DNA from: a virus
Lineage: Duplodnaviria > Caudoviricetes
Strand: one strand, 5' to 3'
Length of the DNA stretch: 64,000 nucleotides
Virus record (IMG/VR): IMGVR_UViG_3300013426_000001
Coordinates: 74,524 to 138,523 of that record
Positions 20,348-26,001 of this stretch are shown here, piece by piece (the stretch's first letter is position 1; every line of letters starts with the position of its first letter). A program made the position numbers and the translations under genes. Below the pieces are notes generated by a model, which was given only the letters and a program-made list of their open reading frames with translations, was not told the DNA's origin and ran no database searches.

Positions 20348-20545
20348 ATGTTACCTGAAAGTATTAGAGATAGAGTTGTCGAAGAGCAGAACGAACTTCG
20401 CGACAGAATCACAAAACTTGCTTTGTTTGTTTACTCGGCGAAAATCGAAACCGTCGACGAAAAGCAAGTGAGATTGCTCAAACGTCAACTTCGTATTATG
20501 AGTGAATATGACGAAGTTCTGACAGAGCGGCTCAAAGCAGACTAA
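20348..20545 (+). CDS. small coiled-coil phage protein
   Basis: RVVEEQNELRDRITKL..QLRIMSEYDEVLTERL. Confidence 0.65.
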   Translation: MLPESIRDRVVEEQNELRDRITKLALFVYSAKIETVDEKQVRLLKRQLRIMSEYDEVLTERLKAD

Positions 20546-21240
20546 AATACAGGTGCCGAATACCAGAGACGTCGGGTCAAAAGGTCGGTTAAATGCGGGA
20601 TTATGCAAGCCTGAGAAAGCAACAACCTCTGAATTGGTGTAAGTGTGTATTAACACCGCCAGGATACGGCGGTATCCATGTAAGCAGGAAGTTGCAGGGG
20701 TCAACTAAAGGCGGCGGCTCGTTAAGCCGTGTAGCAACCCCTCAAAAACTCTATAATTGCACAGCGGATTGTAGATAATGGTGCGGCGCCAACAAGCCGA
20801 AATCAATGCAGTACGTAAGGGACTGATGGTTTACTGAGAAACAGAAAATCTCAAAGCTGTAAAAATATTTTAATAGGTGCTACGAAATCCTCTTAATTAT
20901 ACAAGAGCACTTAAAGTGTGACTTGCTTGCGTAATGACTTAAAGAACCTCGTTGAGTAGAGGTGGTCAGGGTTTAGTATCGAGGGAAAGGCGGTAGTAAA
21001 TGGAGTTGGACGAACAGCCTATATAGAGTTGATGGTGTAAAAATCTCTTAAAACCATCTTACGGAAAGATCCCCAAAAGGGACTGCGGGCGTTACGATTT
21101 TTTCCAGCGCCCACCGCTGACCAACATGCGGGATATAAGTGGCTGGGTCGACAAGTATCAAAAACAGGAATAACTCGAACTGTTTAGTTCCATCTCGGCT
21201 GGACGAGAGGTTTCTCCCCAAAGTACACGGGGATAGGGTT
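20546..21240 (+). ncRNA. large structured ncRNA candidate (GOLLD/ROOL size class, family unassigned)
   Basis: ~700 nt without an RBS-led ORF, more than 10 short hairpins, directly 5' of tRNA-Ser. Confidence 0.65.
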
Positions 21241-21246
21241 ATATGT

Positions 21247-21335
21247 GGAAACTTGCGAGAGTTGGTTTAATCGACTGGTCTTGAAAACCAGCGACCGTAA
21301 AAGGTCCGTCAGTTCAAATCTGACAGTTTCCGCCA
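21247..21335 (+). tRNA. tRNA-Ser(UGA)
   Basis: GGAAACT/AGTTTCC, anticodon loop CTTGAAA, long variable arm, TTCAAAT, GCCA. Confidence 0.95.
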
Positions 21336-21488
21336 CTCGCACGGCTTTATTGATTCCCTGAGCGAGGAAAAGCGAATCAATCGACAAACACGTCGTTAGA
21401 GTGTTCACTGTGCAGGTATCAGATTGGTTAGTATTACCTGTCGGATTGGTGTTTATCCGTCAATGAGGTGCAAACTCAAACACAACAT

Positions 21489-21562
21489 AGGCAATTAGCA
21501 CAAAAGCAGTGCAACCGACTTTGACTCGGTTTACGTTGGAGCGTTACCAGCATTGCCTGCCA
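21489..21562 (+). tRNA. tRNA-Gln(UUG), non-canonical D/T loops
   Basis: AGGCAAT/ATTGCCT, ACCGA-CTTTGAC-TCGGT, GCCA end; T-loop AGCGTTA. Confidence 0.85.
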
Positions 21563-21718
21563 TTATGCCGCACGTACTTTCACGCGGCGGGGAAGACGAA
21601 GAGAAAGCGGAGCTTGAGAAGTGCGCAAACGGAGTAGGTCGTGTGCGCAAGTCATTACTCATCAAGGCAATTACTTTGGTTAGGCGCAAGATTGCTACGT
21701 TTTTGCGAGGAGGTTTAT

Positions 21719-22828
21719 ATGAAACTTAATAAAGCATTTAAATTTAGATTATTGCCAAATCAAAATCAAATAGATCTCCTTGGAAAAACTTTTGGTTGTT
21801 GTAGATCTATTTATAATAAAATGCTTGAAGATAAAATCAAATATTATGAAGAGACAAAAAAGAATTTATCTGTAACTCCAGCACAATATAAACAAGAATT
21901 TGAGTGGTTAAAAGAAGTTGATTCTTATTCTTTGTGTAATGAACAGATGAATTTACAAACTGCTTTCAATAATTTCTTTAGAAACCCAAAAGTTGGCTTC
22001 CCAAAATTCAAAAGCAAAAAGAGTGACAAAAGCAGTTATACAACAAGCAATGTTAGTAATATAATTAGAGTTAACGATAAGCACCAAATTCATCTATGTA
22101 AACTTGGTTGGGTTAAATTTGTAGAACATCGAAAAATTCCAACTGATTACAAAATTAAATCAGTAACAATTACCAAAACTCCATCGGGGAAATATTATAT
22201 TTCAATTTTAACCGAATATGAATATGAAATCTCCAAAAGAGTTTTAGATAAAAACAAATCTCTTGGATTAGATTACAGCTCTCATGACTTTTATGTCGAT
22301 AACCAAGGCAGAAATCCAGAGCATTTACATCATTATTACAGAGATTTGCAAAACAAACTTGCTTTTCACCAAAGAAAACTTTCGCATATGGTTAAGGATA
22401 GCAACAATTATGCTAAACAGAAAATAGTTATTGCTCGAATACACGAAAAGATTTCTAATCAGAGAAAAGATTTCGTAGAAAAAGAATCGACGAAACTCGC
22501 AGACTTATACGACGTTATCTGCCTCGAAAATATTGATTTGTCAAATATTGCTCAATCGTTAAAACTCGGTAAAAGCACGTTAGATAATGCCTTCGGGACG
22601 TTCAGAAATAGATTAGAGCAAAAGATGATATTGCAAGGGAAATTGGTCGCCAAAATAGATAAGTGGTTTCCCTCAAGCAAACTTTGCAGATTTTGTGGTT
22701 GCATTAACAAAGATTTGAAATTGTCCGACAGGGTTTGGAAATGTGAATGCGGTAAAACTCTTAACAGAGATGAAAATGCTGCGATAAATATTCTTAACAA
22801 AGGATTAAAGCAATTGACAATAGCATAA
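21719..22828 (+). mobile_element. tnpB: full-length TnpB (IS200/IS605), no tnpA
   Basis: KAFKFRLLP HTH, GLD, CLENIDL, CRFC/CECG Zn finger, RDENAAINI; RuvC D-E-D intact. Confidence 0.95.
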
Positions 22829-22842
22829 AAATATGTTATAAT
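22814..22842 (+). promoter_or_regulatory. promoter overlapping tnpB stop, positioned to start at the omegaRNA
   Basis: TTGACA 22814, 17 nt, TGn-TATAAT 22837. Confidence 0.8.
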
Positions 22843-22850
22843 TGAAATAG

Positions 22851-22965
22851 AACCGTTAGAACGACGGGGATAGCTTGTTGAAACTGATATTGTTTGGTAT
22901 CTTGAGCAAGAAACTCTGATGTTTTAGCATCGTGAGTAGTTCGCAATACGAGTTTTATTAATCTT
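22851..22965 (+). ncRNA. TnpB omegaRNA (scaffold plus putative guide)
   Basis: AACCGTyrGAACGACGGGGATAGCTTG...CAAGAA...GTTC shared with 38140-38232. Confidence 0.8.
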
Positions 22966-22972
22966 ATGAAAT

Positions 22973-23136
22973 ATGGCTGTACACGTAACGGCAACGTGAC
23001 CGAATCGTAAGTGTCGGAAAGGAAATAAACCCTCAATTGAGGCAATCAACGACGGTTGAAAGCGAATGAATTGGGTTTGAGTTTTCGCGAAAGTGCTCTA
23101 ACTTTATTGTGAGTTCAAATCTCACCAGCCATTCCA
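22973..23136 (+). ncRNA. 164-nt tRNA-like RNA with expanded central domain
   Basis: ATGGCTG/CAGCCAT+TCCA, D arm CACG/CGTG, T arm GTGAG-TTCAAAT-CTCAC, ~110 nt between D and T arms. Confidence 0.75.
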
Positions 23137-23266
23137 CCACCCTGCGGTAGGTATACATACGCGCAGTCCGAAGCTATTGGCGGATATGGAATTTGTGTAT
23201 AGCTAACACACTACGACGGAGTGGACGGGATTTCCCGCGTACCAGACAAAAGAAACCACTCCACCA
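23137..23266 (+). ncRNA. post-tRNA structured RNA motif, copy A
   Basis: CACCCTRCGG..TCCGAA..TGGCGGATA..ACGAC..GACA shared with 23344-23464. Confidence 0.6.
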
Positions 23267-23343
23267 CGGGGTGTAGCGCAGCTTGATAGCGCGTTCGGTT
23301 TGGGACCGAAAGGTCGGAAGTTTGAATCTTCTCACCCCGACCA
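23267..23343 (+). tRNA. tRNA-Pro(UGG)
   Basis: CGGGGTG/CACCCCG, TTCGG-TTTGGGA-CCGAA, ACCA. Confidence 0.93.
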
Positions 23344-23464
23344 GCACCCTACGGCAGACATTCTGAAGATGTTATGTGTGGTCCGAAAAATGGCGGATAG
23401 AGAGAAGGAAGCATTGCGCAATGCTTAGAACGACTGGGAATCTCGACATTAACCTTACCAGCCA
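23344..23464 (+). ncRNA. post-tRNA structured RNA motif, copy B
   Basis: same conserved blocks and stem order as 23137-23266. Confidence 0.6.
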
Positions 23465-23468
23465 TCAT

Positions 23469-23558
23469 GCTTGGTTGCCAGAGTCAGTTAAATGGAGCGG
23501 ATTTGTAATCCGCCGAGCGTCAAAGCTCACGACAGGGCAGAGCTGTCACCAAGCTCCA
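23469..23558 (+). tRNA. tRNA-Thr(UGU) with long variable arm
   Basis: GCTTGGT/ACCAAGC, GCGGA-TTTGTAA-TCCGC, V arm GAGC/GCTC, T arm GACAG/CTGTC, TCCA. Confidence 0.8.
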
Positions 23559-23634
23559 AAATATTTTTAGAAACCGTGTTATTTTGCTTGACACGGTTTC
23601 TTTTTTGTGTTATACTTATCTCAAAGGAGATTTT

Positions 23635-26001
23635 ATGGAAAACCAAGAAAATCAAAACAAAATCACGGGATATTGCGTGCCGACTCGCTTAATTTACCCG
23701 AAAGTCCCGATCGAGGAGTTCGTCCCAGGGAGCTGGGGGCTTCTCGAAGTCGACGTGGGGCAGATATTACAAGGGTCGTTTCCAGCGGGGTTTAGCAAAA
23801 ACGGTTGGTTCCCAACGGTCGTGTTCAAAGGGGCGCTCCCGCCGATTGACACCGAGAAAACGTATTACTTCGAGGTCGAAATGGTCGCGGACGCGAAAAG
23901 CCCGTATAAAGTCGGGTTTAACATTTTGTTTATGACGCAGAGGGTTCGTTTAACAAAGTTTGAAGAGCAAAAGCTTTTCCTCGAAAGCATTTTAACCGAA
24001 CACCAAATCGACATTTTATACGAAGAACTCGTCGACCCGTTCGAAGCGATCGACAGCGGGGATATATTCCTTCTCTCAACTGTAAAAGGGATTGGCGAGA
24101 AAACAGCAGAGAAAATCGTTGAAACGTATAACCGCACCAAAAAGGACGCAAACGCTTTTCTCGTTCTCCGAGAAGAGTTCGGGTTGACTGACGCGGCGGT
24201 GACAAAACTCCAACAACGTTATCTCTCGACAGACACGATAATCGCGAAACTTCGAGAGAACCCATACGAGTTAATGACTCTCGACGGTTACGGGTTCAAA
24301 AAGTGTGATGCACTCGCGCTCAAAGGCGGAATGGCAAAAGACGCGAAATTCCGAGTCCGAGCTTACGTCACGCACTTTTTAACCGACCAAGCCGAGATGG
24401 AGGGAAATTCGTGGATTTATCTCCGCGACCTTTTACACGGTGTGGTTGAGTTTATCCCATCGATAAAGAAGGAAATCTTCGCCGAATGGCTTAAAGAGTG
24501 GTCGGGAAGAATTGATTCGGATGAAACCGTGTTTTTGTACTATGACGAAGAACAGAAGAGGATTGGGTTAAAACACTATCGTGAACTTGAAGAAAACATC
24601 ACTGAAGAAGTTTTCAGGTTACTTAACGCGCCGAAAAAAGATTTGAAGAAATACCGTTTTACAATCGAGGATGCGATTAAAGAATGCGAACAGGAAAATG
24701 GGTGGGAGTACACCGACGAACAAAAAGCAGTAATTTACGGTTGTTTGGAAAACAATATAAGTATAGTAACAGGTAGGGGCGGCAGCGGCAAAAGTACTAC
24801 AATGAAACCGATCGCAAGATTTTGTGCCGCTAATAGATTGTCGGTCGCGCAAACAGCGTTATCTGGGCGAGCCGCGTCTAACTTATCAGAGATAACAAAT
24901 ATTGAAGGCAAGACGATACACAGACTTTTAGGTTATAATCCAAAAGCGGGCGGGTTTGCTTATGATAAAGATAATCCGATTTCAGAAAATGTTGTTATCG
25001 TCGATGAGTTATCAATGAACGATAATGAATTGTTATATCGGCTGTTGCAATCAATACCAAACGGAAGTAAAGTAATTATGTTGGGTGACTACGCACAACT
25101 TGAGCCAATTTCGAATGGAAATTTCCTAAAAGATTGCCTCGATACAAACGCCGTGCCATGTTACCGCTTAACCAAAATTCATCGTCAAGCTCAGAAGTCA
25201 GCAATCATAATCGAATCAATCAAAGTCTCGAATGGGCAGCAGATAATCGGTAATTCGGAAATTAGTGAAATAAGAGGCGAACTCAAAGACCTTAAAATCG
25301 TGACTTATAAAGATGCGGATTTATCGCGAGTGAAATTCCTCACGGAATACCGAACGCTTTTACAGCAAGGGGTTTCGCCTAACGATATAATTGGCGTCGT
25401 CCCGATGAAGTTGCGTGGCGCGATGTCGAGTTTCGCGCTCAACAACGACGTGCAAAAATTCGTCAATCCCGATGAACATTTACCCAGCATCAAGTTGGCG
25501 GCAGATAAAGACAAGTATTACACGATAAGACTTGGCGACCGCGTAATTAACCGCAAAAACCATTACGACACGATTACGCGTGTGGTTTACGAAAGATACG
25601 GGTTTGACAAAGACAACCCCGTTGAACCGATATACAATGGAAATCTCGGTTTCGTTACCGATATACAGGAAAATTACATCGTTGTGGATTTTAAGCAGCA
25701 AGGCGAGGTCGTGATACCGAAGGCGTATTGGGAAGATGTGCTTCTCGGTTACGTCGTTACGACGCACAGCTTCCAGGGGAGTCAGTCGCCTTACGTTGTG
25801 GTCGGATTAGATATGTCGGCTTACATGCTCTTGTCACGAGAAATGCTTTACACGGCGATTACGAGAAGCAAGAAATATTGCGTTTTGGTTGGGCAGATAA
25901 ATGCCATTAAAAAAGCGACTTCGATTAGCCGCGTCTCGGTAAAACAAACGTGGCTTAAAGAATTATTATTAGAAAAAGGAGGTAACAAAAATGGGACGTA
26001 A
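23635..26001 (+). CDS. recD2: RecD2-like SF1B helicase
   Basis: HhH VKGIGEKTA, GRGGSGKS, TIHRLL, VDE, HRQA, THSFQGSQ, YTAITR. Confidence 0.92.
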   Translation: MENQENQNKITGYCVPTRLIYPKVPIEEFVPGSWGLLEVDVGQILQGSFPAGFSKNGWFPTVVFKGALPPIDTEKTYYFEVEMVADAKSPYKVGFNILFMTQRVRLTKFEEQKLFLESILTEHQIDILYEELVDPFEAIDSGDIFLLSTVKGIGEKTAEKIVETYNRTKKDANAFLVLREEFGLTDAAVTKLQQRYLSTDTIIAKLRENPYELMTLDGYGFKKCDALALKGGMAKDAKFRVRAYVTHFLTDQAEMEGNSWIYLRDLLHGVVEFIPSIKKEIFAEWLKEWSGRIDSDETVFLYYDEEQKRIGLKHYRELEENITEEVFRLLNAPKKDLKKYRFTIEDAIKECEQENGWEYTDEQKAVIYGCLENNISIVTGRGGSGKSTTMKPIARFCAANRLSVAQTALSGRAASNLSEITNIEGKTIHRLLGYNPKAGGFAYDKDNPISENVVIVDELSMNDNELLYRLLQSIPNGSKVIMLGDYAQLEPISNGNFLKDCLDTNAVPCYRLTKIHRQAQKSAIIIESIKVSNGQQIIGNSEISEIRGELKDLKIVTYKDADLSRVKFLTEYRTLLQQGVSPNDIIGVVPMKLRGAMSSFALNNDVQKFVNPDEHLPSIKLAADKDKYYTIRLGDRVINRKNHYDTITRVVYERYGFDKDNPVEPIYNGNLGFVTDIQENYIVVDFKQQGEVVIPKAYWEDVLLGYVVTTHSFQGSQSPYVVVGLDMSAYMLLSREMLYTAITRSKKYCVLVGQINAIKKATSISRVSVKQTWLKELLLEKGGNKNGT

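Follow-up and report, generated by a model that had tools for sequence, protein, structure and literature searches.

The two spacers that follow CCA ends in the tRNA island of the phage genome studied here represent a genuine and, judged against Rfam 15, undescribed RNA family, of which we assembled ~48 instances, 39 of them distinct, including copies A and B of the window (the whole stretch of DNA analysed, 64,000 nucleotides; Table 1); the 8,495 unnamed candidate RNAs catalogued from IMG/VR (PMC10690425) lie outside this comparison. The tRNA island in the window belongs to a complete 138.5-kb virus record with terminal repeats. The unit folds into several covarying hairpins and pseudoknots, invariably starts next to a CCA end, and carries two hairpins with palindromic tips. 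On these sequence features, we regard it as an evenly balanced proposition that the unit is a small non-coding RNA gene of the phage tRNA operon, the product of which would be excised and would dimerize with itself via kissing loops.

Table 1. Copies A and B of the RNA motif and their neighbours in the tRNA island (window coordinates)
Feature	Positions	Strand	Remarks
Giant tRNA-like RNA	22973-23136	+	ends U-CCA
CCA end of giant tRNA-like RNA	23134-23136	+	invariant columns 1-3 of the family alignment
Copy A	motif 23137-23262, tail to 23266	+	upstream CCA at 23134-23136
Copy A, 5′ block N-N-A-C-C-C-U	23137-23143	+	unpaired in the model
Copy A, hairpin Pa	23142-23166	+	bulged G, G.A mismatch; tip palindrome GUAUAC 23151-23156
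Copy A, hairpin Pb	23167-23184	+	UCCG/CGGA; loop AAGCUAUUGG contains UGG
Copy A, pseudoknot Pc, 5′ strand UGG	23187-23189	+	partner CCA 23242-23244
Copy A, hairpin Pd	23194-23210	+	UGUGU/ACACA; tip palindrome UAGCUA 23200-23205, A.A mismatch flanks
Copy A, long-range pairing Pf, 5′ strand UACG	23212-23215	+	partner CGUA 23238-23241
Copy A, stem Pe	23218-23262	+	GGAGUGG 23218-23224 / CCACUCC 23256-23262; within it lie, besides an inserted hairpin, the A-rich loop GACAAAAGAAA and the 3′ strands of Pf and Pc (CCA)
Copy A, tail ACCA	23263-23266	+	tRNA-Pro(UGG) starts next
tRNA-Pro(UGG)	23267-23343	+	between copy A and copy B
CCA end of tRNA-Pro	23341-23343	+	immediately precedes copy B
Copy B	motif 23344-23461, tail to 23468	+	
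Copy B, 5′ block G-C-A-C-C-C-U	23344-23350	+	
Copy B, hairpin Pa, long form	23349-23381	+	outer stem CUACG/UGUGG with G.U pairs; inner hairpin 23358-23372
Copy B, Pa tip CUGAAG	23363-23368	+	quasi-palindrome with central tandem G.A
Copy B, hairpin Pb	23382-23397	+	UCCG/CGGA; loop AAAAAUGG
Copy B, pseudoknot Pc, 5′ strand GAG	23400-23402	+	partner CUC 23442-23444
Copy B, long-range pairing Pg, 5′ strand AAGG	23405-23408	+	partner CCUU 23453-23456
Copy B, hairpin Pd	23409-23426	+	perfect 18-nt palindrome; tip UGCGCA 23415-23420
Copy B, stem Pe	23434-23461	+	CUGG 23434-23437 / CCAG 23458-23461; within it lie GAAU, loop GACAUUAA and the 3′ strands of Pc (CUC) and Pg
Copy B, tail CCAUCAU	23462-23468	+	tRNA-like RNA 23469-23558 and then a terminator follow
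Odd class-II-shaped tRNA-like RNA	23469-23558	+	after copy B; terminator next

The sequence blocks singled out in the first-pass annotation are present in both copies as described, and the window contains the string TCCGAA-n-TGGCGGATA two times, where 100 shuffles give an expectation of 0.00. A covariance model, R1, built from the copies of five other phages, recovered both copies, B with 73 bits (E 2e-16) and A, through its 5′ half, with 54 bits (E 2e-11). The further homologues were collected by exact-pattern scans of IMG/VR and metagenome contigs, to which R1, run on the collected loci, added one copy. Their carriers are phage contigs of 78-233 kb, those of the large uncultured phages measuring 100-233 kb, and shorter metagenome contigs, of animal-gut and other origin. 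Complete or near-complete genomes have one or two copies of the unit, ~120 nt in length (range 115-170 nt), beside 20-30 tRNA genes. The family is narrow, so that part of its sequence conservation may reflect recent common descent.

The novelty asserted at first sight was borne out within Rfam 15: cmscan with lax filters (E<=10) reported only three tRNAs in positions 20500-24500 of the window, and in 13 related loci no Rfam family matched the motif either. A full-text literature search with the core words of the motif retrieved unrelated primers only, and when prokaryotes were scanned for the patterns, with each species represented by one genome, all matches were due to chance. R1 had zero matches (E<=1) in the chance pattern loci or in the tRNA region of phage T4 (L085). 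The loci set aside as chance pattern matches are L006-L008, L014, L016, L025, L027, L028, L093-L107 and L083-L084, and a weak R1 match at L063 2681-2775 (E 0.8) was rejected because it sits in coding sequence. A class of 28-nt matches in soil metagenomes and a Chloroflexota MAG was likewise discarded as an unrelated protein-coding gene; the word GTCCGAAGATCCAGGCTGGCGGATAGAG, which mimics the motif core, is kept in a soil-bacterial protein-coding gene unrelated to the family (L032-L035, L042-L057 and others, L082).

Every copy lies on the tRNA strand and begins one base after a CCA (two bases in L031 and L021), which upholds across the family the link to tRNA CCA ends proposed from the two copies of the window; after the CCA and the spacer base or bases comes A-C-C-C-U. 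In most cases ARAGORN places upstream a tRNA (Gly, Trp, Asn, Pro, Gln or Tyr) whose 3′ end coincides with the CCA. Other upstream partners are unusual tRNAs with a GGCAG T-loop, still scored as tRNA by Rfam, 81-nt tmRNA-like heads, a D-armless tRNA-like RNA and the giant tRNA-like RNA of the window, and in L037 there is just a 7-bp hairpin followed by U and CCA. Downstream, the next tRNA begins 4-11 nt past the last stem in most copies, and a terminator follows in L020. ARAGORN and Rfam RF00005 call only the flanking genes, and not the motif itself, as tRNA. A terminal CCA, which had been taken for a shared feature, proved peculiar to copy A and a few relatives. The tight link to the CCA junction suggests that the RNA may work on, or with, tRNA 3′ ends.

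Immediately upstream of copy A, the giant tRNA-like RNA combines a 7-bp acceptor stem, a D arm, a T arm and U-CCA with ~90 extra nt between the anticodon-like arm and the T arm, and is called neither by ARAGORN nor by Rfam. The tRNA-like RNA behind copy B has a long variable arm, an anticodon loop UUUGUAA (UGU, Thr) and a non-canonical T-loop, GGCAGAG; GGCAG T-loops of this kind are also found in tRNAs upstream of the motif in L021, L036, L041, L063 and L077. The island further contains, 300 nt before the motif, an intact TnpB gene (21641-22828) with OrfB_IS605, Cas12f1-like TNB and HTH domains; no tnpA was seen near it, and its 3′ flank, up to ~22960, would contain the guide RNA scaffold. Downstream of the motif lies a gene for a RecD2-like helicase, the top matches of which are from Bacillota phages at ~30% identity, which hints at a Bacillota host.

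Public runs containing parts of the window are mostly pig and sheep gut metagenomes. Comparison of the contigs of four such runs with this region of the window revealed cassettes that are present or absent in related phages. Some of the latter are devoid of exactly copy A, their contigs joining 23132 to 23260, a join that is ambiguous because the 8 letters TCCACCAC are common to both edges; other related-phage contigs have 66 different letters where copy B stands (23343/23468). Thus, the unit behaves as a cassette. Depth differences and RNA-library contigs of the same runs were discounted as evidence of expression or processing.

The fold consists of two parts. The 5′ part comprises the single-stranded block NNACCCU followed by hairpins Pa and Pb, and the 3′ part a pseudoknotted core. 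Pseudoknot Pc joins the GAG after CGGAUA to the CUC of a conserved CUC-GAYAU-A-rich loop in Pe; Pg or Pf braces this core, with hairpin Pd as an insertion. This architecture of four hairpins (Pa, Pb, Pd and Pe), Pc, and Pg or Pf is richer than the one recognized initially, but the underlying claim of a structured RNA with conserved joiners and variable stems holds, in that the named stems pair and covary among the 39 distinct homologues. In an alignment that was fitted to the model, and hence leans towards it, paired cells amount to 93.3%, compared with 76.5% in shuffles, and the covariation score is 0.361, compared with 0.122 in shuffles, none of 500 of which scored as high, and with 0.04-0.09 when the partners are slid by 1-3 columns. 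A curated parsing from the raw loci gave the same picture.

Changes on both sides affect all seven Pd pairs and all five Pe pairs. Hairpin Pa contains a bulged G, and in Pb (UCCG/CGGA) a compatible change from G-C to G.U occurs in L029. Pc is UGG/CCA in the copy A lineage and GAG/CUC elsewhere, with a wobble CUU in L053. In one sub-type, Pg connects the purine run after GAG with the four bases right before the Pe 3′ strand (GGGG/CCCC, GCGG/CCGC, GAGG/CCUC, AAGG/CCUU and CAGG/CCUG); in the other, Pf connects the joiner after Pd with the bases right before CUC (CGUG/CACG, CACG/CGUG, UACG/CGUA and AGC/GCU). The G.U pairs are confined to the tRNA strand, which indicates that the folded molecule is an RNA co-transcribed with the tRNAs.

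The joiners that had been picked out from the two copies fared unequally in the larger sample. The UGG of the Pb loop is nearly invariant, the exceptions being AGG in L063 798-933 and in L092, and the internal GACA is part of the CUC-GAYAU-A-rich loop, whereas ACGAC is not conserved family-wide and its ACG-like core alone recurs. In the 5′ block NNACCCU, the two middle C positions show C>U changes only. Among the pairing partners considered for ACCCU (GGAUAGAG, the purine run after GAG and the 3′ tail), none holds across the sub-types. A tmRNA-like tag or short open reading frame in the 5′ half was rejected because the frames differ (there is an extra base in L021 and no stop in L023) and the changes preserve structure rather than a peptide. 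Mimicry of an RNase P substrate was also rejected, given that nothing at the 3′ end is complementary to the 5′ block and that a terminal CCA is restricted to copy A and its few relatives.

A property that, like the pseudoknots, had escaped the first-pass annotation resides in the tips of Pa and Pd. A script detected six-base Watson-Crick palindromes at the tips of 15 of the 18 distinct Pa hairpins and of 20 of the 23 distinct Pd hairpins, and four of the six that it missed are palindromic by eye (L059 AUAUAU, L023 UUGCAA, L022 ACUAGU and L021 UCGCGA). There are at least 15 different tip words, those of Pa including GUAUAC, GUGCAC, AUAUAU, UAUAUA, CUAUAG, AUGCAU, UGCGCA and UUGCAA, and those of Pd including GUGCAC, UGCGCA, CGAUCG, UAGCUA, CUAUAG, UAAUUA, CCUAGG, ACUAGU and UCGCGA; conserved mismatched bases often flank them, as in A-GUGCAC-A and G-GUAUAC-A. 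A palindromic centre occurs in only 1.4-3.9% of ~14,700 other hairpins from these loci, which excludes a general mutational bias. Loops of this type are the accepted hallmark of symmetric kissing between RNA molecules. Because adjacent bases in one loop cannot pair together, and because palindromy is kept while the words change, these tips argue for pairing between molecules; this line of argument, which takes covarying loop palindromes as a sign of intermolecular pairing, has been confirmed by cryo-EM for OLE and GOLLD (PMC12286853). Within one molecule the Pa word always differs from the Pd word, and paralogues in one genome (the window, L063 and L077) have different tip words, which fits specific Pa-Pa′ and Pd-Pd′ contacts. 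Taken together, the tips make it very probable that the RNA pairs with itself, through putative symmetric kissing loops, and the presence of two palindromic loops is compatible with assembly into dimers or polymers.

Under the reading of the unit as an excised, self-dimerizing small RNA, the downstream end of the molecule would be freed by RNase P when it cuts the next tRNA, and the upstream end by a cut at the CCA junction, for which either a host endonuclease or the RNA itself would be responsible. Thereafter, two molecules would join by kissing of their six-base tips, Pa with Pa′ and Pd with Pd′, to form a homodimer or a closed higher-order assembly, and the resulting particle might act as a stable RNA or as a protein scaffold. 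If this is the case, a family of ~120 nt with two covarying kissing loops, two pseudoknots and a fixed CCA junction would offer a small, tractable model of self-assembly, whereas the self-assembling natural RNAs recently shown, ROOL, GOLLD and OLE, are very large. It would also provide a handle on the old question of the role of the 'stable RNAs' in phage tRNA clusters.

By context, the closest of these are the rnaD and rnaC RNAs of T4 (species 2 and species 1 RNAs, of 119 and 139 nt), with which we group the stable RNAs of the T5 tRNA region. The two T4 units likewise reside in a phage tRNA cluster, two per genome, and rnaD, which is followed by rnaC, starts one base after the CCA of tRNA-Arg, as members of the family do. 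Nevertheless, rnaC has a tRNA-like 3′ domain, the conserved blocks of the family are missing by eye from both RNAs, and homology to them was rejected on the failure of R1 to find anything in the T4 region. For the tips, a parallel is provided by the dimerization initiation site of HIV-1, in which a hairpin loop consists of a six-base palindrome flanked by unpaired purines, as does A-GUGCAC-A in Pa of L022 and Pd of L036; the sequences, hosts and biology are unrelated, and the family, unlike HIV-1, has two such loops per molecule. In the logic of assembly, the family comes closest to ROOL and GOLLD (Rfam RF03087 and RF01998), which, like OLE, are pseudoknotted phage or prophage RNAs near tRNA islands that form homo-oligomers via covarying palindromic kissing loops (PMC12286853). 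Symmetric kissing loops deduced from palindrome covariation are thus common to both, as a reading of the sequences in the family and in the form of known oligomers in ROOL and GOLLD. The latter are, however, unrelated in sequence and 500-800 nt long rather than 115-170 nt, their Rfam models do not match the family, and they show no fixed CCA junction.

The fixed one-base spacing from CCA is unneeded for a free-standing small RNA, and a role in cis fits it at least as well. Judging from sequence, it is possible, albeit rather unlikely, that the unit is a new class of self-cleaving ribozyme that would cut at or just after the CCA, freeing the 3′ end of the upstream tRNA and making its own 5′ end. 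In this respect, it would function like the theta/HDV-like or hatchet ribozymes, whose cleavage site is their own 5′ edge, although its fold is different, and the dimer would perhaps be the active form, as in the VS ribozyme. Such an activity is in keeping with the position of the unit, the start of which is fixed 1 nt (rarely 2) after an acceptor helix-N-CCA whereas the 3′ spacing varies between 4 and 11 nt, and with the high conservation of ~35 joiner nucleotides around covarying stems and pseudoknots. In Bacillota, the host group hinted at by the helicase, CCA-encoding tRNAs are matured by 3′ exonucleases, which a stable structured trailer would block unless the junction were cut. Theta ribozymes provide a precedent for phage tRNA trailers (PMC10879173).

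The parallel with theta ribozymes, already drawn in the first-pass annotation, extends to the location 3′ of tRNAs of gut phages, but not to a general processing device: the unit is attached to only one or two of the 20-30 tRNAs per genome, and the partner tRNA differs between phages, both of which also speak against a ribozyme. Theta ribozymes are minimal HDV-like ribozymes, CCA is encoded in only 4.5% of the tRNAs associated with them, and CCA-adding enzyme and RNA ligase are over-represented in their phages (PMC10879173), whereas in the family the fold is different, CCA is always encoded and no such enzymes were found. Cleavage by a ribozyme would leave a 2′,3′-cyclic phosphate on A76, yet PolyA_pol, PNK3P and DRB0094-type RNA ligase domains were not found in the phage, which in this regard differs from theta-bearing phages (PMC10879173). 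In addition, the +1 and +2 nucleotides at the supposed cleavage site are variable, and no known ribozyme model matches at E<=10, be it the HDV families of Rfam (20500-24500 and 13 related loci) or the hammerhead, hatchet, pistol, twister, twister-sister, hairpin, VS and glmS models (4 kb). That the fold is not HDV-like, as had been stated at the outset, is further apparent from the strand order Pc5′-Pd-Pe5′-Pc3′-Pe3′, which cannot be mapped onto P1-P2-P3-P1′-P4-P2′; threading onto an HDV-like fold was abandoned for lack of a P1 partner, no copy containing a complement to its first 7 nt (NNACCCU). A version that merges self-cleavage with self-association, namely, a CCA-recognizing self-cleaving ribozyme that would act as a kissing-loop homodimer and, as a compact cassette, yield from one transcript a stable dimeric RNA along with the mature 3′ end of the tRNA, also appears unlikely. 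Should the RNA prove to be self-cleaving as well, it would represent a new ribozyme class and a new route to the 3′ ends of CCA-encoding tRNAs.

The second potential role in cis, which we consider doubtful, is that of a cap: the UGG (or its GG) at the 3′ side of the Pb loop would pair with the CCA of the fused tRNA and gate or time its maturation, in the manner of the T-box bulge or the L15 loop of RNase P, or, alternatively, the RNA would display its fused tRNA pairwise. No instance lacks the CCA, not even the 7-bp hairpin + U + CCA of L037; UGG directly adjoins the Pb helix, on which a CCA/UGG pairing could stack; and several upstream partners are odd tRNA-like RNAs rather than standard tRNAs. 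Conversely, the change to AGG in the two copies mentioned above speaks against the pairing, and the CC of ACCCU, at which no changes but C>U occur, could be an alternative partner for the GG. No covariation of the loop with the +1 nucleotide or the discriminator emerged from a by-eye tabulation, which led to the rejection of a fourth pair joining the base after CCA to the one preceding UGG, and of any link to the discriminator. Likewise, T-box models of Rfam do not match the unit, the base after UGG is an invariant paired C, and the discriminator (U, G or A) varies with no change of partner. A cap would also leave unexplained the elaborate 3′ domain and the palindromic tips.

Finally, an element acting at the DNA level, that is, an IS200/IS605-type miniature element or a recombination hot spot at tRNA 3′ ends, with hairpins functioning in single-stranded DNA, is very improbable: the exact absence of copy A and the replacement of copy B in related phages, the recurrence of the same 5′ half behind many different tRNAs and the TnpB gene upstream are all in line with it, but the unit, found only once or twice per genome and in every case behind a CCA on the tRNA strand, has the strand-specific G.U pairs, pseudoknots and A-rich loops typical of RNA, retains next to the tip palindromes conserved mismatches that hairpin-templated repair would erase, and in most copies has neither TnpA nor TnpB nearby. 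By the same token, it departs from PATEs, the miniature IS200/IS605 elements, which are found in many copies, on either strand and in varied contexts, and are bounded by hairpins that TnpA recognizes.

The loci collected here contain other unusual RNAs besides the family itself. The 81-nt tmRNA-like genes that adjoin the motif (L022 12855-12935, L021 2770-2850 and, in L062, just upstream of 1262-1376 on the minus strand) consist of an acceptor stem with G3.U70, GGUUUCGA, a T arm and CCA, with a short closed helix in place of the tag-coding part, and score 45-56 bits with the Rfam tmRNA model. Two further segments, located between or after tRNA genes and starting with CCAUUAUGCAGAGUAUAC and CCACCACGGGCAGAACAUUGCC, are common to different phages (L002 1336-1443 and 1520-1660; L003 1421-1533 and 1706-1850) and have no Rfam match. 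In L001 (387-540 and beyond), the tRNA after the motif is apparently interrupted past the anticodon region by an insert that carries an open reading frame with Cys-rich motifs typical of homing endonucleases and that may be an intron. A motif-bearing phage also encodes a HEARO RNA (L020 939-1143; Rfam RF02033, 119.6 bits).
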